Origin: an uncultured Actinomycetota bacterium
Lineage (GTDB): Bacteria > Actinomycetota > Actinomycetes > JAHEKZ01
Direction of reading: 5' to 3'
DNA: 64,000 bases
Assembly: GCA_963718235.1 (NCBI GenBank)
Contig: CAVQYR010000002.1
Span: 352,001-416,000, forward strand
Part shown: positions 996 through 23,467 of the stretch, in pieces
Position numbering within the stretch: the stretch's first letter is position 1
How the letters are laid out: each line of letters begins with the position of its first letter
Translations under genes and position numbers: made by a program
The notes under the pieces: model-generated
The model's database searches: none
The model's input: only the letters and a program-made list of their open reading frames with translations
What the model was told of the DNA's origin: nothing

Positions 996-2086
996 CCGAG
1001 ACCCCGCAGACCACGGCCGGCGCCCCGACCGGTGAGCCGCTGCTCAGCGTCAGCGGTCTCAAGAAGTACTTTCCGGTCACCAAGGGCAGCCTGATCCGGC
1101 GGCACACGGGTGACGTCAAGGCGGTCGACGACATCACCCTCGACGTCCACCCGGGTGAGACGGTCGGTCTGGTGGGCGAGAGCGGGTCGGGCAAGTCGAC
1201 CGCCGGTCGCACGATGCTGAAGCTGCTGGAGCCCACGGCGGGCAACCTGGTCTTCAACGGCCGCGACATCACCGGGCTCAGCCGCCGCGAGATGGTGCCG
1301 CTGCGCCGGGAGATGCAGATGATCTTCCAGGACCCCTACTCCTCGCTCAACCCGAGGCACACGGTGGGCACGATCATCTCCCAGCCGTTCAAGGTGCAGA
1401 AGATCGACCCGCCCGACGGTCTGAAGTCTGCGGTGCAGCAGCTCATGGAGCGGGTGGGGCTCAACCCCGAGCACTACAACCGCTACCCGAACGAGTTCTC
1501 CGGCGGGCAGCGGCAGCGCATCGGGGTCGCGCGTGCGCTGGCCCTGAACCCCAAGCTGATCGTGGCCGACGAGCCCGTGTCCGCGTTGGACGTTTCCATC
1601 CAGGCCCAGGTCGTCAACTTGTTGGAGGACCTGCAGAACGAGTTCGGCGTCGCCTACCTCTTCATTGCACACGACCTGTCGGTCGTTCGCCACATCTCCG
1701 ACCGGGTCGCCGTCATGTACCTCGGTCACATCGTCGAGTTCACCCCGGCCGACGCGTTGTACTCCAGGCCGCGGCACCCGTACACCGTCGCCCTGCTGTC
1801 CGCGGTTCCCCTGCCCGACCCGGAGCTGGAGCGTCAACGGACCCGGATCCTGCTCAAGGGAGACCTGCCCTCACCGATCGACCCGCCGTCGGGGTGCGTC
1901 TTCCGGACGCGCTGCTGGAAGGCCCAGGAGATCTGCTCCGTCGAGTCGCCGCCGCTGCAGAACGAGGCGCCGAACCACCTGGTGGCCTGTCACTTCCCGG
2001 TGACGGAGGAAGAGCTCGCCAAGGCCGGTGGCGTCACGCCCGCTGCGGCTGCGGCTGCGGCCGGGATCGTCACCCCCAGCGCCTGA
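992..2086 (+). CDS. oligopeptide/dipeptide ABC transporter ATP-binding protein (OppF/DppF-like)
   Basis: [35 protein letters not shown]...ACHF; 4-bp overlap with the upstream gene. Confidence 0.95.
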
Positions 2087-7258: not shown

Positions 7259-7301
7259 CTGGGCCGATCGGGCTACAGATGGGACAACCAGTGGTCGATG
7301 T
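7259..7301 (+). promoter_or_regulatory. 20-bp conserved motif plus sigma28-like promoter upstream of cheW
   Basis: CTGGGCCGATCGGGCTACAG (7259-7278); TACA-N16-GTCGATGT. Confidence 0.65.
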
Positions 7302-7819
7302 TGGCCGATGTGGAGACCGTCGACGCGCTGACCCGAACGACTGACGATGCCGACAGCGGTGTCGCGGTGCCGATCCGTGGGGTGATCCTGCGCTTCGCGG
7401 GGGCCCGCTACGCCGTCGACATGGCTACGGTGGCCGAGGTCGTTCCGGTGCCCTTCGTCACCCGAATCCCCGGGGCGCCCGCGTGGCTGTCCGGAGTCGT
7501 GAACTGGCGTGGGCGGGTCCTGCCGGTGATGGACCTGCGCCCTCTCGTGGGAGCTCCGTTGGCCCCGTCGCCGACCAGCGCCCGTCTGGTCGTGCTCAGC
7601 GTCGACGACGTGGAGTGCGGCCTGGTCGCCGACATGGTCCCGGGCCTGCTCGACTGCGACGCGTCGACCCTCGAGCCCATGCCGGCCACGGCGGCACACA
7701 GCATCGGGCCGCTCGTCCGCGGGATCCTGGACGACGGGGGACCGGTGGCCCTCCTCGACAGTGCGGCGGTGCTGAGCCTGCGTGAGCAGCTTCCGACGGC
7801 ACGCCGAGCCACCCGATGA
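7298..7819 (+). CDS. cheW: chemotaxis coupling protein CheW
   Basis: VAEV...[26 protein letters not shown] motif; true start may be GTG 7310. Confidence 0.92.
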
Positions 7820-9474
7820 ACGCCATCTTCAGTCGCCGGGACATGGCGGCCACCATGTCGGTGCATCTGCTGTTCGCCGCGATGGTCGTGGTCGCGCTCG
7901 TGCTCGAGCAGCGGTACACGCCGGCCGTGGTCCTGTCCCTGCCGCTTGCCATGCTCGCCGTGGTCGTGGCGGTCGCCACTAGCGTCTTCACCTCGGGGGT
8001 GGCGGTCTGGACCTGGCGCACCCGGCGAGGGATCGACACCACGTCGGTCTGGGACCCGGTCACCTCGCTGGTCCAGCTCGGCGTGGCGCTGGTCGCGACG
8101 TACTCCCTTGGCGGGTTCGCGGGCGTCGGATGGATGCTCGTGCTCGTCCTGGTGCCCTACTTCGGGGTGGTCTTCGGCACCGGTCAGCTGCGAGTCCTCG
8201 CAGTGGTGGCAGGAGTGGCCACGACCGCGATCGGGGTGGTGAGCGAGAGCTGGGGCGCCGCCCGACTCCCGACCGCCGTGATGGCGGTAGGGACGGTCGT
8301 CCTCACTCTGTGGTTCACCGAGCAGTCGGCGTCCTACCTCTTCAGCATGAGGCGGCACGCGCAGCTCCAGCAGCAGGCGGTCGAGGGCCGCGCCCAGGAG
8401 ATCTCCGAGGCACTCAGTGCGGCGGCCGTCGGTGACCTGACGGTCCACGCCCCCGCGCACGGCGAGCGCTCCGAGCTCGACGTCGAGTCGACCCGATCGT
8501 TGGACGACCTGGCTGGGTCGTTTGATCACACGGTGGCGGCGTTGAGGGTGTTGGTGGGTCAGGTTCGGTCGGGTGGGGAGCAGATGGGGGCTGCGGCGGG
8601 TCAGGTGTTGGTGGCGGCTCAGGAGCAGGCGGTGTCGGCGGCGGAGCAGTCGTCTGCGGTGGCGCAGACGACGGCGACGATTGAGGAGTTGGCGGCGACG
8701 GCGGCTCAGATTGCTGAGACGTCGGAGTCGGTGGCGCGGTTCGCGTCGGAGACGTTGGGGTTTGCTGAGCAGGGTCGTTCGGCGGTGGCTGCGTCGGTGG
8801 CGGCGATGGACAGTATTGCGTCGCGGGTGGATTCGATTGCTTCTCGGGCTTTGGGGTTGGGGGAGAAGGGTCAGGAGATCGGTCGGATTCTGCAGGTGAT
8901 TGATGAGTTGGCTGATCAGACGAACTTGTTGGCGTTGAATGCTGCGATTGAGGCGGCTCGTGCGGGTGAGCATGGGCGTGGGTTCGCGGTGGTGGCTTCT
9001 GAGGTTCGTAAGTTGGCGGAGCGTTCTCAGGAGTCCGCGGGTCAGATCCAGGCGATTGTGACTCAGATTCAGGCTGAGACGAATGCGACGATCTTGGCGT
9101 CTGAGGCTGGGGCCCGTGAGGTGCATCAGGGGGCGGGGTTGGCCCAAGACGTGGTGGTGGCGTTGGAGCGGATCTCCGGGATGGTGGATGAGACGACCAC
9201 TGCGGCCAAGGAGATCAGTATTGCCACTCAGCAGCAGCGCAGTGCTTCTGACCAGGTGGTCTCGGCGATGACCCAGGTCTCTGATGTGTCTCGGCAGTAC
9301 GCGGTGGGTTCCAAGCAGGCCGCGGCCGCGGCCGGTCAGCTGACCACGTTGGCTGCGGAGCTGCGGGCCTCGATCGCCCAGTTCAAGACCAACGAGGCAC
9401 CGGGGCGGCCATCGAGTGCGACCCACGCCGCACCTCATCACGATCGGGAGCGAGTCGGTGTACACCAGGCGTAA
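7816..9474 (+). CDS. methyl-accepting chemotaxis protein 1 (multi-TM sensor)
   Basis: [39 protein letters not shown] hairpin tip; hydrophobic N-terminal ~190 aa. Confidence 0.95.
8509..9395 (+). repeat. near-identical G/T-skewed MCP signalling-domain repeat, copy 1
   Basis: 887 bp matching 10145-11031 (offset 1636); only one synonymous difference seen by eye. Confidence 0.95.
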
Positions 9475-11038
9475 CGCGTACGAGTCGTCGGGACAGCACT
9501 GGTTGGTGCTGACTCTCGCTCTGCTCATGTCGTGGCTGGCCTGGCAGGACGGGGGCACCTCGCTCCAACCGGGTCCGACCGGCGTCGCTCTGGTCGTCCT
9601 GGCCGGGATCGCGCTGGTCACGACGATGCTGGCCGTGCGCGCCGTTCGGGTCGGGCAGTCCCTGGTCGAGACGATGGTCTGGGAGAGCGCCGTCTGCATC
9701 CTGGGAATCCTCACCCTGACCGGGCTGGTCGGCGTCTCCGGAGGGCTCACGTCCCCCACGGTGTTCGTCCTGCTGGTCTGGGCTCCCTACCTCGGGATGT
9801 CGGTGAGCCGCTGGTACACGGTGACCACCCTGGTCCTGCTCGTCGGCGGCCTGTTCGTCTCGGGCTGGCTGTCCGGCACCCTGACCGGGCACTGGCCGAC
9901 CGCCGTGGCCTACGGCGCCGCGCTCACGGCCGCGGTGCTGGTGACCTATCTCTACGCCTCGGACCTGTACCGCGAGCGTTTCGTCGCCGAGGAGCAGGAG
10001 CACGGGCTCCGGGAGCAGGTCGAGGCGCTCGCGAGCGCGCTGCAGCAGACCGCGCAGGGCAACCTCACGGTCTCGGCGCCCGACGTGGCGACGACCCACT
10101 CCGACGACGAGCTGCTGAACGAGCGGGCGCAGCAGATGGCTCTGCTGGCTGGGTCGTTTGATCACACGGTGGCGGCGTTGAGGGTGTTGGTGGGTCAGGT
10201 TCGGTCGGGTGGGGAGCAGATGGGGGCTGCGGCGGGTCAGGTGTTGGTGGCGGCTCAGGAGCAGGCGGTGTCTGCGGCGGAGCAGTCGTCTGCGGTGGCG
10301 CAGACGACGGCGACGATTGAGGAGTTGGCGGCGACGGCGGCTCAGATTGCTGAGACGTCGGAGTCGGTGGCGCGGTTCGCGTCGGAGACGTTGGGGTTTG
10401 CTGAGCAGGGTCGTTCGGCGGTGGCTGCGTCGGTGGCGGCGATGGACAGTATTGCGTCGCGGGTGGATTCGATTGCTTCTCGGGCTTTGGGGTTGGGGGA
10501 GAAGGGTCAGGAGATCGGTCGGATTCTGCAGGTGATTGATGAGTTGGCTGATCAGACGAACTTGTTGGCGTTGAATGCTGCGATTGAGGCGGCTCGTGCG
10601 GGTGAGCATGGGCGTGGGTTCGCGGTGGTGGCTTCTGAGGTTCGTAAGTTGGCGGAGCGTTCTCAGGAGTCCGCGGGTCAGATCCAGGCGATTGTGACTC
10701 AGATTCAGGCTGAGACGAATGCGACGATCTTGGCGTCTGAGGCTGGGGCCCGTGAGGTGCATCAGGGGGCGGGGTTGGCCCAAGACGTGGTGGTGGCGTT
10801 GGAGCGGATCTCCGGGATGGTGGATGAGACGACCACTGCGGCCAAGGAGATCAGTATTGCCACTCAGCAGCAGCGCAGTGCTTCTGACCAGGTGGTCTCG
10901 GCGATGACCCAGGTCTCTGATGTGTCTCGGCAGTACGCGGTGGGTTCCAAGCAGGCCGCGGCCGCGGCCGGTCAGCTGACCACGTTGGCTGCGGAGCTGC
11001 GGGCCTCGATCGCCCAGTTCAAGACCAACGACGGCTGA
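9416..11038 (+). CDS. methyl-accepting chemotaxis protein 2
   Basis: Same signalling domain as MCP1, distinct multi-TM N-terminus; start uncertain. Confidence 0.93.
10145..11031 (+). repeat. MCP signalling-domain repeat, copy 2
   Basis: Direct sequence match to 8509-9395. Confidence 0.95.
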
Positions 11039-11189
11039 GTGCGGCGGGGCGGCGTCCACGTCCTCGGAGCCCCGACTCCGGAAGTCGGATGCCTGCCCGC
11101 AGGCGCCTGTCGAAGCGTGAACCCCGGGTCTGGCTCGTCTAGGCTGCCTCGAAGCTCGCTGAAGGCTCGAGCAGACCCTGGAGCAGTCC

Positions 11190-14100
11190 ATGTTCTCCCT
11201 GAGGTGGCGCGACGGCGCCCTGCGGGTCACCGCATGGGTCGCGTCGTCGTCGACGGCCGCACTGGCCGTCACGGGGCTGCTCGTCCTGGGGGCTCCCTCG
11301 GCGGGTGCAGCCGGGCTCTGTGCCACCCCCGGCGGCTCGGGGGCAGGCGGCACCCTCACCGGTGTGGTCAACACGTACTACCCCGGCACAGGGGTGGTCG
11401 CCGCTGGAGCGACGAGCATCAACGTGGGATCGGCGTCCGGGGCGGCGAACCCCATTGCGGCCGGTGACCTGTTGCTCGTCATCCAGATGCAGGCCGCCGA
11501 CTTCGACTCGACCAACACCAACGCGTACGGACACGGTCCTCCCGCGGTGGCGCCGGCGTCCGGCTACACCGGCCTCAACCAGGCCGGACGTTACGAGTAC
11601 GTGCGCGCGACATCCGGTGTCGTCGCGGGGTCGGTCGGTGTGAGTGGGCTCGGCCCCGGCGCCGGACTGGTCAACGACTACGTCTCCGCAGCCGCGACCG
11701 GCGTCAGCGGCCAGCGCACGTTCCAGGTCGTCCGGGTCCCGCAGTACACGACCGCGACGACCAGCTCGACGCTCACCGCCTCGCCGTGGAACGGGTCCGT
11801 CGGGGGAGTCCTGGCCGTCGACACGACCTCAACCCTCACCCTCAACGGGACCGTGAGTGTTGACGGTCTTGGCTTCCGCGGAGGGGCCGGGATCCAGCGC
11901 GGTGGTGCGGCCGGGTTGGCCAACACCGACGTGGTGACCAGTGCCACGCTCGCCGCCAACGGCAACAAGGCCGAAGGCATCGCCGGAACTCCGGTCGGGA
12001 CGAGCGCCGGCAACGGCTACCCGGGCGGAGATGCCGCGCGCGGGGCGCCGGGGAACGCAGGTGGTGGGGGCACCGACGGTCAGCCGTCGGCCAACGACCA
12101 GAACTCAGGTGGTGGCGGCGGGGGCAACGGCGGAGCCGGCGGCCAAGGGGGCAACACCTGGTCGTCCAACCTGCCCCGTGGCGGATACGGCGGGGTGGCC
12201 CTGCCGGCCGGTGCGAGCCGAGCCTTCCTCGGTGGTGGCGGTGGTGCCGGTACCTCGAACAACTTCCCGCCACCAGCGGCCAACGGGGCCGCAGGGGGCG
12301 GCATCGTGATGATCCGCGCCGGGTCGGTGGGCGGTGCGGGCACGATCTCGGCCAACGGCGCGGACGCGTACAACCTCACCGCCAACGACGGCGCAGGTGG
12401 GGGCGGCGCCGGGGGGACGGTCATGCTGACCTCGCCGAGCAGCTCGCTCGCCGGGGCGACGTTGAGGGCGAACGGTGGCCGCGGTGGCAACGCGTGGGCC
12501 ACCCAGGCCGGGGCCGGGAGTGCGCACGGTCCTGGTGGCGGCGGCGGTGGTGGCTGGGTCCTCACCTCGAGCCCGCCCACCTCCGCCAGCGTCACGGGCG
12601 GGGCGAACGGCATCACCACCACCGGCAACCTCCCCTACAACGCCACGCCCGGTGGCGCCGGGCAGACGGCCACGGTGGCCCCGTCGTCGATCCCCGGAGT
12701 CAGTGGTGGCGCTGAGTGCGCCGACCTGTCGGTGACGAAGTCGGGTCCGGGGTCGGTGTCGGCGGGTGGGGCGGTCAGCTATGACCTGACGGTGGCCAAT
12801 GCTGGTCCGTCGGATGCGGTGGCGGTGTCGGTGGTGGACACGTTGCCGGCTGGGGTGTCGTTCGTGTCGGTGTCGGCGGGTGGGGCGTGGTCGTGCTCGA
12901 ACGCGGGGGACGTGTCGGTGACGTGTACTCGGCCGTTGTGGGCGGCGGGGTCACCGCCGGAGACGATCACGGTCGTGGTGACCGCTCCGGCCCAGGCGAG
13001 CACGCTGGTCAACAGCGTGTCCGTGTCGGCGACGACGCCCGACCCCGACCCGACGAACAACACCGCAACAGCTACCACCGACGTGACTCCGCTCGCCGAC
13101 CTCTCGGTCCTGAAGTCGGGTCCGGTCACCGTTCTGGCGGGTGGGACGGTCAGCTATGACCTGACGGTGGCCAATGCTGGTCCGTCGGATGCGGTGGCGG
13201 TGTCGGTGGTGGACACGTTGCCGGCTGGGGTGTCGTTCGTGTCGGTGTCGGCGGGTGGGGCGTGGTCGTGCTCGAACGCGGGGGACGTGTCGGTGACGTG
13301 TACTCGGCCGTTGTGGGCGGCGGGGTCACCGCCGGAGACGATCACGGTGGTGGTCACTGCTCCGGCCCAGGCTGGGTCGTTGACGAACACGGTGTCGGTG
13401 TCCTCGACCACCTCAGACCCCGATCTGACCAACAACACCGACTCGACCACCACCGGGGTGGCTGGTTCGGCTGACTTGTCGGTGACTAAGTCGGGTCCGG
13501 GGTCGGTGTCGGCGGGTGGGACGGTCAGCTATGACCTGACGGTGGCCAATGCTGGTCCGTCGGATGCGGTGGCGGTGTCGGTGGTGGACACGTTGCCGGC
13601 TGGGGTGTCGTTCGTGTCGGTGTCGGCGGGTGGGGCGTGGTCGTGCTCGAACGCGGGGGACGTGTCGGTGACGTGTACTCGGCCGTTGTTCGCCGCGGGT
13701 GCCCCGGCGTCGGTGATCACGGTGGTGGTCACGGCTCCGGCTTCGGCTACGACGTTGACCAACTCGGTGTCGGTGGCGTCCACGACGGCTGACCCGGACT
13801 CGACGAACAACTCTGACTCGGTGGACACCACGGTGACGGCGTCGGCTGACTTGTCGGTGACTAAGTCGGGTCCGGGGTCGGTGTCGGCGGGTGGGACGGT
13901 CAGCTATGACCTGACGGTGGCCAATGCTGGTCCGTCGGATGCGGTGGCGGTGTCGGTGGTGGACACGTTGCCGGCTGGGGTGTCGTTCGTGTCGGTGTCG
14001 GCGGGTGGGGCGTGGTCGTGCTCGAACGCGGGGGACGTGTCGGTGACGTGTACTCGGCCGTTGTTCGCCGCGGGTGCCCCGGCGTCGGTGATCACGGTGG

Positions 14101-16601
14101 TGGTCACGGCTCCGGCTTCGGCTACGACGTTGACCAACTCGGTGTCGGTGGCGTCCACGACGGCTGACCCGGACTCGACGAACAACTCTGACTCGGTGGA
14201 CACCACGGTGACGGCGTCGGCTGACTTGTCGGTGACTAAGTCGGGTCCGGGGTCGGTGTCGGCGGGTGGGACGGTCAGCTATGACCTGACGGTGGCCAAT
14301 GCTGGTCCGTCGGATGCGGTGGCGGTGTCGGTGGTGGACACGTTGCCGGCTGGGGTGTCGTTCGTGTCGGTGTCGGCGGGTGGGGCGTGGTCGTGCTCGA
14401 ACGCGGGGGACGTGTCGGTGACGTGTACTCGGCCGTTGTGGGCGGCGGGGTCACCGCCGGAGACGATCACGGTGGTGGTGACTGCTCCGGCCCAGGCTGG
14501 GTCGTTGACGAACACGGTGTCGGTGTCCTCGACCACCTCAGACCCCGATCTGACCAACAACACCGACTCGACCACCACCGGGGTGGCTGGTTCGGCTGAC
14601 TTGTCGGTGACTAAGTCGGGTCCGGGGTCGGTGTCGGCGGGTGGGGCGGTCAGCTATGACCTGACGGTGGCCAATGCTGGTCCGTCGGATGCGGTGGCGG
14701 TGTCGGTGGTGGACACGTTGCCGGCTGGGGTGTCGTTCGTGTCGGTGTCGGCGGGTGGGGCGTGGTCGTGCTCGAACGCGGGGGACGTGTCGGTGACGTG
14801 TACTCGGCCGTTGTTCGCCGCGGGTGCCCCGGCGTCGGTGATCACGGTGGTGGTCACGGCTCCGGCTTCGGCTACGACGTTGACCAACTCGGTGTCGGTG
14901 GCGTCCACGACGGCTGACCCGGACTCGACGAACAACTCTGACTCGGTGGACACCACGGTGACGGCGTCGGCTGACTTGTCGGTGACTAAGTCGGGTCCGG
15001 GGTCGGTGTCGGCGGGTGGGGCGGTCAGCTATGACCTGACGGTGGCCAATGCTGGTCCGTCGGATGCGGTGGCGGTGTCGGTGGTGGACACGTTGCCGGC
15101 TGGGGTGTCGTTCGTGTCGGTGTCGGCGGGTGGGGCGTGGTCGTGCTCGAACGCGGGGGACGTGTCGGTGACGTGTACTCGGCCGTTGTTCGCCGCGGGT
15201 GCCCCGGCGTCGGTGATCACGGTGGTGGTCACGGCTCCGGCTTCGGCTACGACGTTGACCAACTCGGTGTCGGTGGCGTCCACGACGGCTGACCCGGACT
15301 CGACGAACAACTCTGACTCGGTGGACACCACGGTGACGGCGTCGGCTGACTTGTCGGTGACTAAGTCGGGGCCGGGGTCGGTGTCGGCGGGTGGGACGGT
15401 CAGCTATGACCTGACGGTGGCCAATGCTGGTCCGTCGGATGCGGTGGCGGTGTCGGTGGTGGACACGTTGCCGGCTGGGGTGTCGTTCGTGTCGGTGTCG
15501 GCGGGTGGGGCGTGGTCGTGCTCGAACGCGGGGGACGTGTCGGTGACGTGTACTCGGCCGTTGTGGGCGGCGGGGTCACCGCCGGAGACGATCACGGTGG
15601 TGGTGACTGCTCCGGCCCAGGCTGGGTCGTTGACGAACACGGTGTCGGTGTCCTCGACCACCTCAGACCCCGATCTGACCAACAACACCGACTCGACCAC
15701 CACCGGGGTCGGGGACTCCGCCGACCTGACCATCACCAAGACCGGCCCGGCCACGGTCAGGGCCGGTGGCAGCATCGAGTACGGGCTGCAGGTGCGGAAC
15801 CTCGGTCCGTCGGCCGCTGACTCGGTCGTGGTGACCGACACCCTTCCCGGCGGCGTGGTCTTCGGGTCCGCCTCGGGCATGGGCTGGTCGTGTGGCCACA
15901 GCGGGAATGTGTCAGTCACCTGCACCCGCCTGGCCCTGGGGCCTGGGGTGCAGGCCCCGGAGATCTCCGTGGTGGTGTCCGCACCCGGTCGGGCGAGCAC
16001 CCTTCGGAACGTGGCGTCGGTGGGGTCGGCCACCCCGGACCCTGACCCGACGAACGACACGGACTCGGCTCGGACCCGGGTCTCCGCGGCCGCAGACCTC
16101 TCCCTGGTCAAGGTCGGCCCCGCCCGCACCTCGGTCGGTGCGACCATCGCCTACCGACTGGTCGTCACCAACGCCGGCCCCGACCCGGCGGTCGGGGTCA
16201 GGGTCACCGACCGGCTGCCGTCCGGTGCGACGTTCAGATCCGCGGCCGGGCCAGGGTGGTCGTGCAGCGCCACCGCGGCGCACCGGGTCGTATGCGACCG
16301 GGCGCGGTTGGCCGACGGCGCGAGCGCCCCCGCGATCACCGTCTCGGTCACGGCGCCCGCGTCACCGGTCGACCTGGTCAACACCGCTGGGGTGACGGCG
16401 GACACCTACGACCCCGTCGATGACAACAACGCTGCCTCTGCAGCCACCTCGGTGCTGGCGCACTTCGGAGGTTCGGGGGGCGAGCTCCCGCGCACGGGGG
16501 GCGGGGATCTGCGCCTGCTGACCCTGCTGGGGGTCGTTCTCCTCGCGTGTGGCACCGCCTTGTCCAGTGCCTTGCCCTCCCGGTCGCGGCGGGCCGGTTG
16601 A
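11190..16601 (+). CDS. large sortase-anchored surface protein: Gly-rich N-terminal head, ten DUF11 (Ig-like) repeats, LPxTG anchor
   Basis: Signal-peptide-like N-terminus; ADLSVTK...VVDTLP...DPDxTNN repeats; LPRTGG followed by hydrophobic helix and RSRR tail. Confidence 0.92.
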   Translation: MFSLRWRDGALRVTAWVASSSTAALAVTGLLVLGAPSAGAAGLCATPGGSGAGGTLTGVVNTYYPGTGVVAAGATSINVGSASGAANPIAAGDLLLVIQMQAADFDSTNTNAYGHGPPAVAPASGYTGLNQAGRYEYVRATSGVVAGSVGVSGLGPGAGLVNDYVSAAATGVSGQRTFQVVRVPQYTTATTSSTLTASPWNGSVGGVLAVDTTSTLTLNGTVSVDGLGFRGGAGIQRGGAAGLANTDVVTSATLAANGNKAEGIAGTPVGTSAGNGYPGGDAARGAPGNAGGGGTDGQPSANDQNSGGGGGGNGGAGGQGGNTWSSNLPRGGYGGVALPAGASRAFLGGGGGAGTSNNFPPPAANGAAGGGIVMIRAGSVGGAGTISANGADAYNLTANDGAGGGGAGGTVMLTSPSSSLAGATLRANGGRGGNAWATQAGAGSAHGPGGGGGGGWVLTSSPPTSASVTGGANGITTTGNLPYNATPGGAGQTATVAPSSIPGVSGGAECADLSVTKSGPGSVSAGGAVSYDLTVANAGPSDAVAVSVVDTLPAGVSFVSVSAGGAWSCSNAGDVSVTCTRPLWAAGSPPETITVVVTAPAQASTLVNSVSVSATTPDPDPTNNTATATTDVTPLADLSVLKSGPVTVLAGGTVSYDLTVANAGPSDAVAVSVVDTLPAGVSFVSVSAGGAWSCSNAGDVSVTCTRPLWAAGSPPETITVVVTAPAQAGSLTNTVSVSSTTSDPDLTNNTDSTTTGVAGSADLSVTKSGPGSVSAGGTVSYDLTVANAGPSDAVAVSVVDTLPAGVSFVSVSAGGAWSCSNAGDVSVTCTRPLFAAGAPASVITVVVTAPASATTLTNSVSVASTTADPDSTNNSDSVDTTVTASADLSVTKSGPGSVSAGGTVSYDLTVANAGPSDAVAVSVVDTLPAGVSFVSVSAGGAWSCSNAGDVSVTCTRPLFAAGAPASVITVVVTAPASATTLTNSVSVASTTADPDSTNNSDSVDTTVTASADLSVTKSGPGSVSAGGTVSYDLTVANAGPSDAVAVSVVDTLPAGVSFVSVSAGGAWSCSNAGDVSVTCTRPLWAAGSPPETITVVVTAPAQAGSLTNTVSVSSTTSDPDLTNNTDSTTTGVAGSADLSVTKSGPGSVSAGGAVSYDLTVANAGPSDAVAVSVVDTLPAGVSFVSVSAGGAWSCSNAGDVSVTCTRPLFAAGAPASVITVVVTAPASATTLTNSVSVASTTADPDSTNNSDSVDTTVTASADLSVTKSGPGSVSAGGAVSYDLTVANAGPSDAVAVSVVDTLPAGVSFVSVSAGGAWSCSNAGDVSVTCTRPLFAAGAPASVITVVVTAPASATTLTNSVSVASTTADPDSTNNSDSVDTTVTASADLSVTKSGPGSVSAGGTVSYDLTVANAGPSDAVAVSVVDTLPAGVSFVSVSAGGAWSCSNAGDVSVTCTRPLWAAGSPPETITVVVTAPAQAGSLTNTVSVSSTTSDPDLTNNTDSTTTGVGDSADLTITKTGPATVRAGGSIEYGLQVRNLGPSAADSVVVTDTLPGGVVFGSASGMGWSCGHSGNVSVTCTRLALGPGVQAPEISVVVSAPGRASTLRNVASVGSATPDPDPTNDTDSARTRVSAAADLSLVKVGPARTSVGATIAYRLVVTNAGPDPAVGVRVTDRLPSGATFRSAAGPGWSCSATAAHRVVCDRARLADGASAPAITVSVTAPASPVDLVNTAGVTADTYDPVDDNNAASAATSVLAHFGGSGGELPRTGGGDLRLLTLLGVVLLACGTALSSALPSRSRRAG
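12720..15720 (+). repeat. tandem array of eight 375-bp near-identical DUF11 units (variant order A',A,B,B,A,B,B,A)
   Basis: Unit starts about 12720, 13095, 13470, 13845, 14220, 14595, 14970, 15345; A = LWAAGSPPET, B = LFAAGAPASV; two diverged units follow (15720-16455). Confidence 0.95.
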
Positions 16602-16611
16602 CCGACCGGCA

Positions 16612-16654
16612 CTAGGCCGAACGGGCTACAGGTCGCCCGCGCTCCCGCCGATCC
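16612..16654 (+). promoter_or_regulatory. 20-bp conserved motif plus sigma28-like promoter upstream of MCP3
   Basis: CTAGGCCGAACGGGCTACAG (16612-16631); TACA-N16-GCCGATCC. Confidence 0.7.
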
Positions 16655-16709
16655 TCCGGGGAGGCCTCGGCGTGCGTCGAGGTTCCACGGCAAGGAGTGG
16701 AGCGGGATC

Positions 16710-18359
16710 GTGAGCGTGACTGACATCGAGGCGAGCTCGCCGGTCGACGTTGCGCTGTGCTTCACCCGTCGCAACGCGGTCGAGACCGTCTCCCTGCACT
16801 GGGGCCTGGTCGCGCTCGCCGGATCGCTGGGTGTGCTCTGGTCCTGGGCGGCCGAGAGCGCGCTGCCCCTGATGGTCGTCGGCGGCCTTGCGGTCCAGCT
16901 GCTCACAGCCATCGCGGTCACGTGGCTCGCGGTCGACGCGGTCCGGTCGACCGCCACCTTCGACAGTACCGACCGGTGGGACGGTCCGACCGCGGTCGTG
17001 CCGGCCGTGGCGATCGTCATCGAGACCGTGGGCACCGGCGGAGCGACCAGCCCGCTCTGGCTGGCCCTCGTGGTCTCCGTCGTCTACCTGGGGACTGCGC
17101 TGGTCTACGAGCTGCGGTACTTCGTCGCAGCCGGACTGGTCGCCGCTCCCTGGCTGTCGACGATCGCCGTCGGTGAACCCACCCGGATGAGCTGGGTCTT
17201 CGCCGCAGGTCTCAGCGTGAGCCTGCCGGCGGTCTACCTCGTGGTCCGGGGTGCGTCTCGGGCCCTGTACGACGAGGCGGAGCGGATCGGGCTGAGTCAG
17301 GCCGAGCTCGACCGGCAGGTCCGCGAGCTGTCCGGAGCACTCGGACGGGCCGCCAAGGGCGACCTGGTCACCGATGTCGCTCGGGTGGCGGGAATGCATG
17401 CTGAGGGACTCGGGACCAGTGCGCTCGCCCAGCTGTCCGACGCCTTCAACGAGACGCTCGGTGCCCTGCGTGACCTGGTGGGTCAGATCCGTTCGGGTGG
17501 CGACCAGCTCGGCGCGTCGGCTACCCAGCTCGTCTCGACGGCTCAGGAGCAGGCGGTGTCTGCGGCGGAGCAGTCGTCTGCGGTGGCGCAGACGACGGCG
17601 ACGATTGAGGAGTTGGCGGCGACGGCGGCTCAGATTGCTGAGACGTCGGAGTCGGTGGCGCGGTTCGCGTCGGAGACGTTGGGGTTTGCTGAGCAGGGTC
17701 GTTCGGCGGTGGCTGCGTCGGTGGCGGCGATGGACAGTATTGCGTCGCGGGTGGATTCGATTGCTTCTCGGGCTTTGGGGTTGGGGGAGAAGGGTCAGGA
17801 GATCGGTCGGATTCTGCAGGTGATTGATGAGTTGGCTGATCAGACGAACTTGTTGGCGTTGAATGCTGCGATCGAGGCGGCTCGTGCGGGTGAGCATGGG
17901 CGTGGGTTCGCGGTGGTGGCTTCTGAGGTTCGTAAGTTGGCGGAGCGTTCTCAGGAGTCCGCGGGTCAGATCCAGGCGATTGTGACTCAGATTCAGGCTG
18001 AGACGAATGCGACGATCTTGGCGTCTGAGGCTGGGGCCCGTGAGGTGCATCAGGGGGCGGGGTTGGCCCAAGACGTGGTGGTGGCGTTGGAGCGGATCTC
18101 CGGGATGGTGGATGAGACGACCACTGCGGCCAAGGAGATCAGTATTGCCACTCAGCAGCAGCGCAGTGCTTCTGACCAGGTGGTCTCGGCGATGACCCAG
18201 GTCTCTGATGTGTCTCGGCAGTACGCGGTGGGTTCCAAGCAGGCCGCGGCCGCGGCCGGTCAGCTGAACTCCCTGGCGATCCACCTGAGCGCTGCGATCG
18301 CCCAGTTCAAGACCGACCGCAACGGGGGTTCGCACACCCCCGCGGACCTCGATCGCTAG
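16710..18359 (+). CDS. methyl-accepting chemotaxis protein 3
   Basis: MCP hairpin tip motif; GGAG RBS before GTG. Confidence 0.95.
17539..18267 (+). repeat. MCP signalling-domain repeat, copy 3 (shorter tract)
   Basis: Matches 8615-9343 (offset 8924); flanking homologous sequence is diverged and C-rich. Confidence 0.93.
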
Positions 18360-18398
18360 GCCGATCGGGCTACAGCAGTGCGCCCGGGCTTCCGATGA
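18356..18398 (+). promoter_or_regulatory. 20-bp conserved motif plus sigma28-like promoter upstream of MCP4
   Basis: CTAGGCCGATCGGGCTACAG (18356-18375); TACA-N16-TCCGATGA. Confidence 0.7.
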
Positions 18399-18452
18399 CG
18401 TCGAGAAGGCGTCGTTCGACGTCTGCGGTCTCCGGCCGAGGAGGGATGAGCG

Positions 18453-20201
18453 GTGCCCAGCCACGAGCAGACCACCGCTGCCCCCGACGCGGCCCCACAG
18501 CTGACTGCTGCCGAGCTGCTCGAGGCCATCGACCGGAGCAAGACGGGCGGCGCCTCACTTCCCTTCACCCAGCGCAACCTGGTCGAGACGACGGTGCTGC
18601 ACTGGGGACTCACCGCCTTCGCGGGCGCGATCGTCGTGCTCTGGTCGCAAGCGATGCGAACGACCGTGGACCCCCTGCTGTGGGTGACCCTGGGACTGCA
18701 GGTCCTGATCGCCGTCGTGGCGACTGGCCTCGCCGTGCACGCTCGTCGGGCCCGGCTGACGTATGAGTCGACCGACGCGTGGGACGGGCTCACCGGGGCA
18801 CTCCAGGTCGCAGCCGCTGCCGCCGGAACGATCTGGACCGGCGGCGTGACCAGCCCGCTGTGGATCGCCGTCATCGTGGGCTCGGGCTACCTCGCCACCG
18901 TGCTCGTCTACGCCAGCGGCTGGGTCATGGTCGGACTGCTGGCGGTCGCCGCTCCCCTGAGCGGCTACCTGTCCGGCACCCTCGACCCCGACGTCGTGCC
19001 CGCCGCCGTACCGGTGACCTTCGCGCTGACCCTCGGCATGCCCGCCCTGTACGTGGTCGTGCGTGGGACGTCGCGGGCGCTCTACGACGCGGCGGAGGGG
19101 GTCGGCTGGGACCAGGCGCTCCTGACCGCCCAGGTGCGGGAGATGGCGCTCGCCCTCGACCGGGCCTCGGCAGGCGACCTCTCGGTGCGGACCACCCTCG
19201 TCGCCTCCGACCTGCAGTCGAGAGGCGATGAGACCACCGGCCATGTCGTGGCCCTGGCATCGACGTTCGACCACACGCTCGAGTCCCTTCGACGCCTGGT
19301 GGGTCAGGTTCGGTCGGGTGGGGAGCAGATGGGGGCTGCGGCGGGTCAGGTGTTGGTGGCGGCTCAGGAGCAGGCGGTGTCGGCGGCGGAGCAGTCGTCT
19401 GCGGTGGCGCAGACGACGGCGACGATTGAGGAGTTGGCGGCGACGGCGGCTCAGATTGCTGAGACGTCGGAGTCGGTGGCGCGGTTCGCGTCGGAGACGT
19501 TGGGGTTTGCTGAGCAGGGTCGTTCGGCGGTGGCTGCGTCGGTGGCGGCGATGGACAGTATTGCGTCGCGGGTGGATTCGATTGCTTCTCGGGCTTTGGG
19601 GTTGGGGGAGAAGGGTCAGGAGATCGGTCGGATTCTGCAGGTGATTGATGAGTTGGCTGATCAGACGAACTTGTTGGCGTTGAATGCTGCGATCGAGGCG
19701 GCTCGTGCGGGTGAGCATGGGCGTGGGTTCGCGGTGGTGGCTTCTGAGGTTCGTAAGTTGGCGGAGCGTTCTCAGGAGTCCGCGGGTCAGATCCAGGCGA
19801 TTGTGACTCAGATTCAGGCTGAGACGAATGCGACGATCTTGGCGTCTGAGGCTGGGGCCCGTGAGGTGCATCAGGGGGCGGGGTTGGCCCAAGACGTGGT
19901 GGTGGCGTTGGAGCGGATCTCCGGGATGGTGGATGAGACGACCACTGCGGCCAAGGAGATCAGTATTGCCACTCAGCAGCAGCGCAGTGCTTCTGACCAG
20001 GTGGTCTCGGCGATGACCCAGGTCTCTGATGTGTCTCGGCAGTACGCGGTGGGTTCCAAGCAGGCCGCGGCCGCGGCCGGTCAGCTGACCACGTTGGCCG
20101 CGGAGCTGCGGGCCTCGATCGCCCAGTTCAAGACCAACGACACAGCGGACCGATCACCTGACCGCAAGGTCGCGTCGAGCGGACTGGAGGCGCGCGCATG
20201 A
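18453..20201 (+). CDS. methyl-accepting chemotaxis protein 4
   Basis: MCP hairpin tip motif; ATGA overlap with cheA. Confidence 0.95.
19297..20140 (+). repeat. MCP signalling-domain repeat, copy 4
   Basis: Matches 8552-9395 (offset 10745). Confidence 0.95.
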
Positions 20202-22421
20202 GCAGCTGGGCCAACGATCCCGAACTGGTCGCGACCTTCCGCCAAGAGGTGGAGGACCGGCTCGTCTCGCTGTGTGACGGCCTTCTGAAGCTCGAGGGTC
20301 ACCCGCAGCCCCGACAGCTGGTCGCCGCGCTGTTCCGCGACGCCCACACCGTCAAGGGCTCGGCGAGAATGCTGAGCCTGGACGAGGTCGTCGAGGTGGC
20401 TCACCGCTCGGAGGACCTGCTCGGCGCGGTGCGCGACGGCCGGTTCGAGCCGCGCAAGGACCTCGTCGACCTGCTCCTGATGGCAGCTGAGGGGATCCGG
20501 CGTGGTCTCCCCGGCTCCGAGCGCTCGGTGGCCGCGGACGAGCTGGCAGCGCTGGTCTCCGCCCTCGACCAGGCGCTTTCGGGCATGGACCCGGTCGTGG
20601 TCCCGAGACTGCGGCCACTGTCCGACGAGACCGAAGAGGTCGCGATGGTCGAGAGCGGGCGGGTGCGGACGGGTGAGTCCGTGCGCGTACCGGTCCGTCG
20701 GGTCCACGGGCTGCTCGATGTCGTCGGCGAGGCCGAGCTGGAGTCGCGCAAGGTCGAACGCTACGTCCATGAGCTGGCCGGTCTCTCCGGCGAGCACCTG
20801 CGCCTGGCCCGACAGCTGCGTGCGGCCGCGACCGCGAGCAGCTCTCTTCCCCCGGAGCTCGCGCAGGGGGTCCACGCACTGGTCTCGCTGGGCGACCAGC
20901 TCCAGGCCTCGGTGCGTGAGCTGCGGGGCACCGTCGAGGACGAGCAGAACCGTCTCGCCCAGGTCCGTGAGGGAGCCATGGGCCTGGCCATGGTTCCGGT
21001 CCGTCGGGTCGTCACCGTCTTTCCCCAGCTCGTGCGCGAGCTGGCCACCGAGACGGGCAAGGAGGTCCGCCTCGCGCTGGTCGGGGAGGACGTCGAGCTC
21101 GACACCCGGGTGCTCGACGGCGTCGCCGACGCCCTGCGCCACCTCGTCACCAACGCGGTCGACCACGGATGTGAGCCGCCGGCCGAGCGGACCGCGGCTG
21201 GCAAGCCGGCCTCGGCCACGGTGACCGTCTCGGCCAGGGCGTCCGGCTCGACCGTCGTGATCGAGGTCGCCGACGACGGCTACGGCATCGACGAGACGCA
21301 GCTTCGCGCGGCGGCGATCGAACGAGAGCTCCTGGCAAGCGACTCCCTGCTGTCGGGCCAGCAGCTGCTCCAGGTGCTCTTCCACCCGGGGTTCTCCACC
21401 CGGGAGGAGGTCACGCAGACCTCCGGACGCGGGGTCGGCCTCGACGTCGTCCTCACCGCGGTGGAGGAGCTCGGTGGCACGATCGAGGTCGAGACCCAGC
21501 CAGGGACGGGCACGTCGTTCATCATGACCCTCCCAGTGACGTTGGGTGTCATGCGCTGCCTGGTCGCACGCCTGGGTGAGGAGCGCTACGCCGTACCCGT
21601 CACCAACGTCGTCGAGACGCTGAGCCTGACCGACGTGGCGATGTCGACGGTCGCCGGAGCGCCCGTCCTCGTCCGGCACGGGACCACGGTGCCGCTCGCC
21701 GACCTGGGCCGGGCCCTGGGGGTGCCCGGCGAGCGTGAGACCCGGGTCGGCGTCGTGGTGCGCTACGGCGGTGCCGGCGAGCAGCTCGCCTGGGCCGTCG
21801 ACGCCCTGGAGGGCGAGCTCGAGCTCGTCGTGAAGGACCTGGGTCGCTTTCTCGGCCGCCCACCGTTCATCGGTGGCGGGACGATCGACAGCGACGGCAG
21901 CGTGATGCTGCTGCTCGACATCCGCGAGCTCGCAGTGGAGCAGCTCACCCATGGCACGCCCACTCGACCTGGCCCGACCGGTCCCTCGGGCGACGGCATC
22001 GACCGAGGACGCGCCACCGGCACGGTCGACGGCGACCGGCGGGACCGCCAGGAAGGCCCGGGTGCTCGTCGTCGAGGACTCCGTGGGGGTCCGGGAGCTC
22101 CAGCGCGTGATCCTCGAGGGAGCCGGCTACGACGTCGTGACCGCCGTCGACGGAACCGACGGGGCGGCCCGGCTGACCGGAGACCCGGTCGACCTCGTGC
22201 TCTCCGACGTGGAGATGCCGGGCATGGACGGCTTCACCCTCACCCGGGCCATCCGGCGCAGCCGAAGCTGGCAGAACGTACCGGTCGTCATCATGACCTC
22301 CCGGGGCGACGAGGCGGACCAGCGCGCGGGCATGGACGCCGGCGCCAACGCCTACCTGCTGAAGAGCGAGTTCGACCAGTCAGAGCTCGTGGACACCGTC
22401 CGTCGGCTGGTCGGCAGGTAG
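20198..22421 (+). CDS. cheA: hybrid CheA (Hpt-dimerisation-HATPase-CheW-REC) with an apparent single-base frameshift near 21960
   Basis: RDAHTVKGS Hpt, [24 protein letters not shown]; REC domain (VLVVEDS...[10 protein letters not shown]...YLLK) lies in the 21951-22421 frame; removing one C at 21959-21961 joins them. Confidence 0.85.
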
Positions 22422-22438
22422 TCCGAAACGACCATCTC

Positions 22439-22478
22439 GGGCCGGTCGGCTCAGGTCCCGGCCCGGTCGGGCCGAAGC
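22439..22478 (+). promoter_or_regulatory. degenerate copy of the motif plus sigma28-like promoter upstream of the response regulator
   Basis: GGGCCGGTCGGCTCAG; CTCA(22450)-N17-GCCGAA(22471). Confidence 0.55.
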
Positions 22479-22507
22479 ATCCTGGAGACAACGAGAAAGG
22501 GCACCTG

Positions 22508-23467
22508 ATGCCGACCGTGGTGATTGCCGACGACAGCCCGGTAGTACGTTCGATCGTGCGGAAAGTGCTCGCGACCGAGGGGTTCGACGTCGTCGAGGCC
22601 GAGGACGGTGTTCTTGCCGTGCAAGCCGTCTTCCGCACCATGCCCGATGCGATCGTGCTCGACGTGCAGATGCCACGGGTGTCCGGCTATGTCACGGCCC
22701 GCCTGCTCAAGGACGACTGGCGGACCGCTGACATCCCGGTCCTGCTCCTGACCTCGCTGGACGCCGCCTCCGACCGCTACTGGGGAGACCGGGTCGGGGC
22801 CGAGCGGTTCCTCACCAAGGACTTCGAGGCCCCCGAGCTCGTCGCGGCGGTGCATGAGGTGCTCGAGAGTGCCGACGCGGCCCGTGGTGGTCGCCCGCCC
22901 CTGCGCCCTGAGCCGGTCGAGATGACCGATGACGACGTGTTCGGCAGCGTCAGCGACATCCTGGACCGCAAGCTGTTCGAGTCATCAATCGCCTCAGAGG
23001 TGATGGGCATCGCTGCGGATGCGAACGGCTTCGAGGCAACGATCGCGCAGGTGCTCGAGGTGCTGAGTCGGGTGGTCGACTACGACCTGGCCGCGGTCTT
23101 GATGCTGGACGACCGGTCGACCTACATCCGGGTGGCGCGCGAGACCTCCCACCAGCAGTACGCGGAGTTCTTCGACGCCGTCGCCGATGCCGTCTCCGAC
23201 TCCACCGGGCAGCGCGTCGCGCCGTCCGACCTGCAGGCGAGAGTGGCCGACCCGGACCGCAACCTGGGCGCCGACGACGAGGGAGAGATGGCAACGTTCT
23301 TGTCGATGCCGCTGAAGTCCGCGGGTGGGATGGTCGGTCTTCTGGCCCTGTCGAGTGCGAGCACGAACGCCTTCGGTGAGACGTCGCTGAACACGCTTCG
23401 GCTGGTCAGCTCGCCGGCGGGCATCGTGGTGGCGAACGCTCGGTATGCAGGGGCACAGGTTCTCTGA
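22508..23467 (+). CDS. response regulator: N-terminal REC, C-terminal GAF-like domain
   Basis: IADDS...LDVQMP...LLTS...FLTK; FLSMPL...VGLLALSS...AF GAF-type tail; own RBS (GAAAGG) before ATG 22508. Confidence 0.85.
   Translation: MPTVVIADDSPVVRSIVRKVLATEGFDVVEAEDGVLAVQAVFRTMPDAIVLDVQMPRVSGYVTARLLKDDWRTADIPVLLLTSLDAASDRYWGDRVGAERFLTKDFEAPELVAAVHEVLESADAARGGRPPLRPEPVEMTDDDVFGSVSDILDRKLFESSIASEVMGIAADANGFEATIAQVLEVLSRVVDYDLAAVLMLDDRSTYIRVARETSHQQYAEFFDAVADAVSDSTGQRVAPSDLQARVADPDRNLGADDEGEMATFLSMPLKSAGGMVGLLALSSASTNAFGETSLNTLRLVSSPAGIVVANARYAGAQVL

Follow-up and report, generated by a model that had tools for sequence, protein, structure and literature searches.

Probable GRINS-type elements in the homogenised, recoded signalling domains of tandem chemoreceptor genes of an uncultured member of the Actinomycetota

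Concerted evolution by gene conversion is well known from the tuf and rRNA genes, and from the group A Tlp receptors of Campylobacter, which share signalling domains. To our knowledge, none of these cases involves strand-specific synonymous recoding. In GC-biased gene conversion, heteroduplex repair biases which alleles become fixed at synonymous sites and may prevail over codon preference; this bias favours G and C symmetrically and leaves no strand skew. Genetic repeats that show intense nucleotide skews (GRINS), described in 2021, are defined as sequences of >500 bp that are duplicated within a gene cluster at >80% identity and have mean absolute GC and TA skews both above 0.15. Here, we analyze a 64,000-nucleotide (nt) window (G000:C2:352001-416000) from the genome of an uncultured member of the Actinomycetota, in which four tandem genes for methyl-accepting chemotaxis proteins (MCP1 to MCP4) contain near-identical, G/T-rich tracts, and a gene inserted among them carries an array of similarly skewed DUF11 repeats. 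We consider it likely that the tracts and the array are both GRINS-type elements, homogenised by conversion and recoded by a bias that fixes keto bases (G and T) in place of amino bases (A and C).

In the published GRINS, GC and TA skews are correlated (r = 0.70), and the main text of their description, which leaves the mechanism open, places them in many phyla and gene families, with transposases and repair genes named (PMC8256042). That text does not mention chemoreceptors, although its supplementary gene-family tables may list them. The literature that we searched yielded no paper joining concerted evolution, methyl-accepting chemotaxis and gene conversion, and among the matches listed (10 of 429) GRINS were named solely in their original description.

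The source genome (G000) comprises 3.17 Mb in two contigs (C1 and C2), has a G+C content of 70% and is an estimated 95% complete; the nearest related loci come from uncultured Actinomycetota, and relatives are labelled Motilibacteraceae, Frankiales, Mycobacteriales and Acidothermaceae. The tracts span the entire signalling domain of the four MCP genes (coordinates are given in Table 1). Relative to the copy in MCP1, 1 of 887 bases differs in MCP2, 2 of 729 in MCP3 and 2 of 844 in MCP4, and tract-to-tract identity by BLAST is 94.4-99.9%; the encoded signalling domains are identical across ~240-295 residues, whereas DNA identity among the four sensor parts is only 33-66%.

The shared stretch has its own codon usage. 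Third positions outside it are approximately G.42, C.50, T.05 and A.03; inside it they are G.5-.9, C 0-.10, T.10-.42 and A 0. Leucine is encoded by TTG at 16 of 20 positions in the tract compared to 1 of 26 in the MCP1 sensor, CTG and CTC being normal elsewhere, and this genome seldom uses TTG or T-ending codons. The GC skew of the tracts in 300-nt windows (+0.40 to +0.435) reaches beyond the genome-wide distribution (standard deviation 0.070, maximum 0.419, 31,710 windows). Of the 12 most extreme same-sign skew regions in the genome, four are the tracts and three belong to the DUF11 array.

The change in codon usage coincides with the edges of identity. Between 8552 and 8614, C-ending codons number 0 of 20 in MCP1, MCP2 and MCP4, where this interval belongs to the tract, versus 8 of 20 in MCP3, where a near-identical peptide lies outside it. 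Immediately upstream (8509-8551), the count is 1 of 14 in MCP1 and MCP2, versus 8 of 14 in MCP3 and 6 of 14 in MCP4, both of which are outside the tract at this point. The skew boundary is thereby resolved to ~50 nt within one transcript. These results agree with the first-pass annotation of this DNA, which had placed all four tracts exactly to the base, had noted divergent sensors joined to near base-identical signalling domains (33-66% versus 99-100% identity in our alignments), and had described a switch in codon usage where identity begins (in our counts, a C-ending fraction falling from ~0.5 to 0.05-0.1, with G or T instead). Its observations that the tract ends differ among copies and that the unshared homologous part of MCP3 keeps C-ending codons were likewise correct, as were its hand counts (G27 C12 T15 A6 at 8761-8820; G19 C25 T11 A5 at 9901-9960).

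Compared with the published definition, the tracts (887, 887, 729 and 844 nt) and the DUF11 array (3000 nt) exceed the GRINS length, and identities of 94.4-99.9% among tracts and 83-99% among DUF11 units exceed the GRINS identity, in a cluster that does not encode a polyketide synthase (PKS). Mean absolute skews, measured in 150-nt windows with a step of 30, are.33-.34 (GC) and.18-.20 (TA) for the tracts and.23 and.32 for the array. The unskewed sensors have GC values of.05-.07 but TA values of.18-.29, so that only the GC measure discriminates and TA carries no weight here. The two skews are correlated within the tracts (r 0.58-0.68) and the array (r 0.89), versus 0.13 in the background at 24000-64000, and copies are more alike within the cluster than between homologous clusters. 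The GRINS-like nature proposed in the first pass therefore holds on every published measure that could be tested; its remark that GRINS are mainly a feature of PKS genes is right as far as it goes, except that many phyla and gene families are already on record (PMC8256042).

Further likenesses to the elements in PMC8256042 are the recoding of a conserved protein region, greater similarity within than between clusters, association with gene conversion, the occurrence of both skew signs, and a host lineage in the Actinobacteria, where GRINS are most frequent. The differences are that the hosts here are chemoreceptors and a DUF11 surface-repeat protein rather than PKS modules, that there are only 2-8 copies, that each tract has one sign whereas signs alternate within 1 kb in PKS GRINS, that identity is 99-100% versus 75-95%, and that single-copy orthologues serve as controls (PMC8256042). 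The tracts thus add chemoreceptors to an already known kind of element, with unusually good natural controls.

To place the cluster in an evolutionary context, we compared it with related genomes (G handles) and with a set of 74 loci (loci carry L handles); each set contains one genome per species, and some of the loci probably come from the same species as the genomes, so that the samples overlap and counts from them are not additive. Orthologous clusters occur in the same family, several relatives having 3 to 8 tandem copies and others one. In a tree of signalling-domain DNA, copies cluster by genome in seven multi-copy genomes (G000, G005, G008, G009, G010, G012 and G017; support of 89-100 in the Shimodaira-Hasegawa-like approximate likelihood ratio test), and median identity is 85-99% within genomes versus 83% between them. 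In the sensor protein tree, genes cluster by orthologue class across genomes and genera: G000_1 with G008_3 (support 99) and G010_2; G000_2 with G005_3, G009_6 and G008_1; and G000_3 with G005_2 (support 96), G017_1, G010_3 and G009_4. This discordance shows that the MCP duplications predate the genera and that homogenisation of the signalling halves came later, independently in each genome.

Within the tract, single-nucleotide polymorphisms at 8637, 8949 and 9354 split the four copies of the source genome incompatibly (G,T,T,G; T,T,C,C; T,T,G,C), as expected from several overlapping conversion events. The sequence comparisons thus show that recurrent, overlapping gene conversion, that is, concerted evolution, keeps the signalling domains of the four paralogues near-identical, while the sensor halves diverge freely and stay orthologous across genera. 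As in other cases of concerted evolution, paralogues within a genome are closer than orthologues and conversion is limited to part of the gene. The discordant trees therefore uphold the earlier proposal of gene conversion among chemoreceptor copies. That proposal had also invoked the same strand-biased conversion process as in GRINS: the conversion is established by the trees, and a strand bias of the conversion itself is supported by the evidence below, short of proof.

Skew follows copy number. At third positions, the GC skew ranges from +0.42 to +0.83 in eight multi-copy genomes versus -0.19 to +0.24 in seven single-copy orthologues, and the TA skew from +0.61 to +1.0 versus 0 to +0.52; the first positions of leucine codons also differ between the two groups, and second positions are unchanged. 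At columns with the same amino acid, comparison of the seven single-copy orthologues with the source genome gave 330 changes from C3 to G3 and 269 from C3 to T3, with 42 and 7 in the reverse directions, and CTG or CTC was replaced by TTG 98 times. Single-copy orthologues with 75-80% protein identity use normal C-ending codons. The first-pass annotation had named a T/G bias in single-copy orthologues as an observation that would count against it; the comparison gave the opposite result and ties the skew to repetition.

For the 74-locus set, a second copy was taken to be ≥90% identity within the same locus across ≥150 nt (one case relies on the assembly graph), and a locus was called skewed at an absolute third-position GC skew of ≥0.35, a threshold picked after the values were seen; four short contigs were excluded. 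Every one of the 17 loci that have a second copy is skewed (+0.42 to +0.87, with one at -0.70), versus 1 of 54 without. The multi-copy state changes at least five times on the protein tree, and skew follows copy state in four of four independent pairs. One family member with a single copy is intermediate in skew (+0.22 to +0.24) and has a sensor of the MCP4 class, which suggests decay of the skew after loss of a partner.

The recoding also appears to be maintained by a force that is still acting. Where the first two bases of a codon agree, fourfold sites show 55-92% identity between multi-copy genomes (61-70% in pairs with the source genome), versus 43-56% expected at saturation under independent draws. 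Fourfold C is ~0.07-0.16 per multi-copy lineage (.26 in G005), against a genomic value of 0.5. Because most of the synonymous signal has turned over while C remains low, the force would have to be continuing; a single past accident would relax towards 0.5.

This turnover bears directly on a foreign origin, in which a signalling module of unusual composition would have entered the genome a single time and spread by copying to the resident receptors. A tract G+C content of 0.60-0.64, versus 0.70 in its surroundings, fits such an origin. However, lineages with extensive synonymous turnover retain the skew, at least four separate clades acquired it, with both signs represented, and the tract nests among orthologues of related actinobacterial families on the protein tree. 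Moreover, no genome-wide codon usage yields a C3 of ~0.05 together with a G3 of 0.6-0.9. We consider acquisition of a foreign module exceedingly unlikely.

An assembly or polishing artefact, with copies collapsed or homogenised through mis-mapped reads, also deserves consideration, since near-identical 0.85-kb repeats are difficult to assemble and the short-read assemblies of relatives break there (the matches lie at contig ends in G001, G011, G013, G014 and G015). Contigs from three freshwater-sediment or sediment metagenome runs nevertheless match the stretch at 95-100% and the tract at 99-100%, and show the same tract variants (8949 T/C and 9354 T/C). They cross the 3' junction of MCP1 without a difference, go on from 9395 into the exact flanks of MCP2 (11032-11061) and MCP4 (20141-20170), and their word depth is 2-6 times as great over the tract as over the sensor. 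Because the source sample itself may be among the runs, the contigs support the assembly while falling short of proof. Two loose-end strings (runs X2 and X6) had no match in the window; they probably belong to other strains or other copies. Collapse or mis-assembly of the copies had been named at the outset as a refuting outcome: the short-read metagenome contigs agree with the assembly at the MCP2 and MCP4 flanks and at the MCP1 3' junction, a check that is partial in coverage and confined to short reads. The same architecture recurs in many relatives, and skew specific to codon positions cannot arise from polishing. An artefact is, in our judgment, extremely improbable.

The DUF11 gene provides a second, internal control. 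Its eight homogenised units have third positions of C.20-.26, G.57-.66 and T.12-.17, with GC skews of +0.13 to +0.23 and TA skews of +0.21 to +0.34. Two diverged units of the same gene (15711 and 16086; 44-47% and 33% identity to the eight) have C3 values of.50-.56 and no skew, and the N-terminal part of the gene is unskewed as well. Gene, strand, transcript and domain family are the same in this comparison, and homogenisation alone differs. Together with the sharp edges of the MCP tracts, this control excludes effects of whole transcripts and of whole replichores. The converted stretch alone is recoded at synonymous sites towards keto bases on the coding strand, which here is also leading-strand sequence.

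A relative, G041, carries the mirror image of this pattern. Its orthologous tract is recoded in the opposite direction, with fourfold sites of C.87, G.10, T 0 and A.03; NNY codons end in C rather than T (37 versus 0), NNR codons in A rather than G (41 versus 14), and leucine is encoded by CTC at 14 of 21 positions. Whole-tract skews are -0.24 (GC) and -0.36 (TA). The tract is common to at least two genes: the ends of two contigs with different sensors, both of ordinary codon usage, share one 141-nt overlap with the beginning of the tract contig, and one of the two contigs starts with the 80 nt that follow the tract. The shared overlap and this continuation are what a collapsed tandem repeat looks like in an assembly graph.

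The remaining 16.8 kb of the G041 tract contig (kdpA, kdpD and ABC transporter genes) has 93% of its gene length on the MCP strand, yet its GC skew of -0.046, negative in 16 of 18 1-kb bins, runs against gene orientation. Its magnitude exceeds that of any other among 12 contigs from this genome (range -0.028 to +0.030), and the 354 leading-strand windows of 17 kb in the source genome include no value this low. The negative contig skew therefore places the G041 receptor genes probably on the lagging strand, with the G+T excess once more on leading-strand sequence. In the source genome, the + strand of C2 has a positive GC skew in 18 of 19 50-kb bins, which puts the MCP cluster on the leading strand. 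The clusters of G000, G008 and G006 are co-oriented with replication, so that transcription and replication polarity are inseparable there and only G041 is informative. The 20-kb flanks in eight further genomes have a mostly positive coding-strand skew (mixed in G005 and G042), while the immediate flanks in the source genome are ~0. The skew is strongest on the 5' side of the tract in G000 and on the 3' side in G041, in both genomes the side that a fork would meet first (n = 2).

Opposite recoding of one domain weighs heavily on selection at the level of mRNA or translation, by which rare codons, RNA structure or regulation of the signalling domain would account for the pattern independently of recombination. 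Nearly all of the recoding is synonymous and keeps the reading frame, and because TTG and T-ending codons are rare in the genome, translation speed could in principle change. Yet single-copy orthologues with 75-80% identical protein use normal codons, G041 recodes the same domain in the other direction, and the unrelated DUF11 domain is biased only where it is homogenised. The single-copy orthologues and the mirror tract together exclude causes at the level of the protein and of codon adaptation, and selection of this kind seems to us very unlikely. Foreign origin, codon adaptation and assembly artefact were accordingly rejected.

The form of the recoding is informative about its cause. On one strand, keto replaces amino at each synonymous opportunity, and the genomic preference for G+C picks the base within the class, as a fixation bias would give. 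Were the origin mutational, the repeats would spend longer single-stranded, whether where forks stall (lagging-strand template) or in R-loops (non-template strand), deamination of C and A would enrich G+T, and conversion would merely spread the result; the GRINS authors discuss both deamination and tautomer-driven misincorporation (PMC8256042). The G+T excess does have the direction of the ordinary leading-strand bias in a leading-strand cluster (18 of 19 bins), and C to T is frequent (269 pairs, with T 15 versus C 8-10 in NNY codons), but C to G is as frequent (330 versus 269) and fourfold G rises from.30-.54 to.55-.74. Whereas opposite-strand deamination predicts G to A, fourfold sites of the mirror tract have moved to C (.87) and not to A (.03). 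Arginine stays CGG or CGT, with AGR absent, and no skew is seen in the diverged DUF11 units or in the part of MCP3 that is not shared, although transcripts and replication strand are the same. A mutational origin is improbable on this evidence, though less so than the other alternatives considered so far. Overall, we infer that the recoding stems neither from the protein, expression level or a foreign origin nor from plain cytosine deamination.

What we favour in its place is a continuing fixation bias that would act on recombination intermediates between copies, in effect biased gene conversion that is strand-asymmetric and follows the keto/amino axis. It would differ from GC-biased gene conversion in that keto is set against amino, the effect is strand-specific and G+C content falls. 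The ordinary G+T excess of the leading strand lies on the same axis, and apparently has the same sign relative to the fork in the G/T tracts and in the mirror C/A tract, but the tracts are ~20 times stronger (0.40 versus 0.017 in 17-kb windows), confined to repeats and sharply bounded.

One enzyme with a suitable specificity is the mismatch endonuclease NucS/EndoMS. In vitro, it cleaves only G/T, G/G and T/T mismatches, according to the text of PMC6159521, and spares A/C, C/C and A/A (PMC6159521, PMC11551744); its specificity thus falls on the same keto/amino axis as the skews. In Mycolicibacterium smegmatis, alleles introduced by annealed oligonucleotides are described as removed, in patches of a few bases, where they give G/T, G/G or T/T, and as persisting where they give C/C, A/A, A/C or G/A (PMC11551744). 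The source genome encodes a full-length NucS (NucS_N 107 bits, NucS_C 137 bits), and no match to MutS_V was found in this genome (estimated 95% complete); MutL was not searched for.

Extrapolating from this published specificity, NucS could act on inter-copy heteroduplexes and bias which allele survives. An incoming strand of constant polarity, for example a nascent lagging strand annealing to a neighbouring copy, would form the heteroduplex; NucS would erase incoming keto alleles, while incoming amino alleles, whose mismatches are C/C, C/A and A/A, would escape it. The family would then be driven, one allele at a time, to G+T on the leading-strand sequence and to C/A on the incoming strand. 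GC and TA skews would then be coupled, G/T and A/C interchanges would be neutral, and the sign would flip if an array were inverted relative to the fork. Such a model would explain the coupling of GC and TA skews, the equal commonness of C to G and C to T, arginine codons of CGN rather than AGR, and the C/A mirror in G041. Set against it are the single informative orientation, and the occurrence of GRINS in taxa with MutS and the alternating signs of PKS GRINS, neither of which it explains alone. That GRINS skews are the footprint of NucS/EndoMS is therefore a tentative idea that we think rather unlikely to be correct as it stands, if somewhat less so than a mutational origin. We found no paper linking GRINS with NucS, or NucS with biased gene conversion, in the literature searched. 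If the idea is true, small MCP arrays are a tractable model for a new, strand-asymmetric biased gene conversion.

Several observations weigh against recoding by conversion-associated fixation bias or limit its support. Singleton variants among the copies, at 12 sites (six keto-to-amino, four amino-to-keto and two keto-to-keto changes), are too few to set a fixation bias apart from a mutation bias. Skew also fails to track identity throughout: it peaks at 8550-9100, while the last ~300 nt of the tract are 100% identical and yet less skewed (C3 in 19 of 80 codons, then 6 of 16), and receptor G008_2 is skewed (third-position GC skew +0.68) though only ~72-85% identical to its neighbours. The multi-copy genomes belong mostly to one family, leaving few independent contrasts (p 0.125 in a sign test on four pairs). 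The case for decay after copy loss is no more than suggestive: an approximately unbiased test for nesting of single-copy L059 inside the multi-copy clade was not significant (p 0.417), so that this single-copy member may have branched before that clade.

A search with the G041 tract gave 80 metagenome loci. None had a second copy in the sequence examined, yet five have an absolute third-position skew of ≥0.46, one of them being the G041 sequence itself. Two, L225 and L261, are skewed without a neighbouring copy over at least 2.2 kb on both sides (2.2-8 kb). Their skew starts sharply at the signalling-domain boundary, extends ~650 nt and is almost purely GC, with nearly no TA skew. By analogy, their partners may be located elsewhere in the genome: G027 has two copies 68 kb apart, both moderately skewed. 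Single-copy skewed regions are also reported by the GRINS authors (PMC8256042).

PKS GRINS are hard to analyze, having many modules, alternating signs and no single-copy controls. The MCP locus offers a short array of 2-8 copies, a well-understood domain, unskewed single-copy orthologues, at least four separate gains, a mirror tract in a relative and a second, unrelated gene in the same genome. Two questions become testable with it: whether mutation or conversion is biased, and whether the sign of the skew follows replication or transcription. For chemotaxis, the locus indicates that a receptor family can diversify its inputs with one output module held identical, at the cost of strongly non-preferred codons. 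The first-pass proposal that conversion fixes one docking module for CheA and CheW is a plausible consequence: all of the receptors would offer CheW and CheA the same module as the sensors diversify.

The genes of the cluster are arranged on the + strand in the order CheW, MCP1, MCP2, DUF11 repeat gene, MCP3, MCP4 and CheA-type kinase (Table 1). All four MCP open reading frames pass the Pfam MCPsignal gathering cut-off of 34.6 bits by a wide margin (150.5-150.7 bits). Their N-terminal parts (~230-270 amino acids) are divergent and contain many hydrophobic stretches; a Pfam search of all four proteins matched no family there. With CheW adjoining upstream and the kinase downstream, gene context suggests that MCP1 to MCP4 signal via CheW and CheA, the kinase being the likely docking partner of the shared signalling module.

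Table 1. Features of the chemosensory cluster (window coordinates) and the mirror-image tract of G041
Feature	Position	Strand	Evidence or remark
CheW gene	7298..7819	+	Immediately 5' of MCP1; Pfam CheW 100 bits
MCP1, divergent sensor with multiple transmembrane segments, then common signalling domain	7816..9474	+	Pfam MCPsignal 150.6 bits; alignment
Tract copy 1, homogenised, G/T-skewed, 887 nt	8509..9395	+	99.9% identity to copy 2; mean absolute GC skew 0.34, mean absolute TA skew 0.20
MCP2	9416..11038	+	Pfam MCPsignal 150.7 bits
Tract copy 2, 887 nt	10145..11031	+	Contig of run X1 passes from tract into 11032-11061
DUF11 repeat protein gene, 1803 amino acids, inserted between MCP2 and MCP3	11190..16601	+	Pfam DUF11 689 bits, 10 stretches
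Eight homogenised 375-nt DUF11 units, G/T-skewed	12711..15710	+	83-99% identity; probable second GRINS-like element
MCP3	16710..18359	+	Pfam MCPsignal 150.7 bits
Tract copy 3, 729 nt, shortest	17539..18267	+	2 mismatches to copy 1; homologous flanking codons C-ending
MCP4	18453..20201	+	Pfam MCPsignal 150.5 bits
Tract copy 4, 844 nt	19297..20140	+	2 mismatches to copy 1; contig of run X2 passes from tract into 20141-20170
CheA-type kinase (Hpt, HATPase_c, CheW, receiver, GAF)	20198..23467	+	Pfam
G041 mirror tract	L134 (G041:C80) 166-1050		With L155-L157; C/A-rich, using GAA and CAA codons although genomic G+C is 68%

Among the receptor clusters of relatives, a fifth receptor class occurs in G008 (G008_2, L032 7412-8308) and G009 (G009_5, L031 12161-13036), where it is not homogenised with its neighbours; its third-position GC skew is +0.68 in the former, which may reflect old or partial conversion, and +0.12 in the latter. 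In G006 (L037, G006:C3:167000-186900), most receptor copies appear split into two or three reading frames and give many partial matches; these could be pseudogenes or products of long-read frameshift errors.

Other repeats of the source genome vary in skew. A 392-nt inverted pair (94% identity) and an 11-kb inverted pair (90%) are unskewed. The 11-kb segment lies on both contigs in opposite orientation (C1:2254245-2265288 and C2:875208-886281), and the profile of GC skew points to a single chromosome in which C2 forms the other replichore to C1. A family of ~480-nt direct repeats (91%) and an 87-nt tandem array (99%) are G/T-skewed. The former (C1:1076665-1077141, 1079613-1080057 and 1096169-1096648; 79-91% identity) has GC skews of +0.17 to +0.28 and TA skews of +0.13 to +0.21, no convincing reading frame and a location in a region of lower G+C content; the latter (G000:C1:1391182-1391622; 5.1 copies at 99% identity) has skews of +0.26 (GC) and +0.86 (TA), and its best open frame encodes a repeat rich in Val, Phe, Leu and Arg. 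Genome-wide, Tandem Repeats Finder returned five long-period tandem repeats, none on the lagging strand.

The remaining extreme-skew windows (C1:1622901, C1:2187401/2190401 and C2:279001/280101) and the repeats at C1:1076665/1096169 and 1179564/1191373 were set aside as candidates, having no clear gene or being unrepeated. A gene for 1144 amino acids at C1:2187288-2190719, which has no intragenomic repeat of ≥300 nt, is G/T-skewed in its 5' window (+0.31 GC, +0.24 TA) and C/A-skewed in its 3' window (-0.30 and -0.33). Finally, an IS110-family transposase gene lies on the - strand of the window at 28967-29785, ~5.5 kb 3' of the chemosensory cluster.

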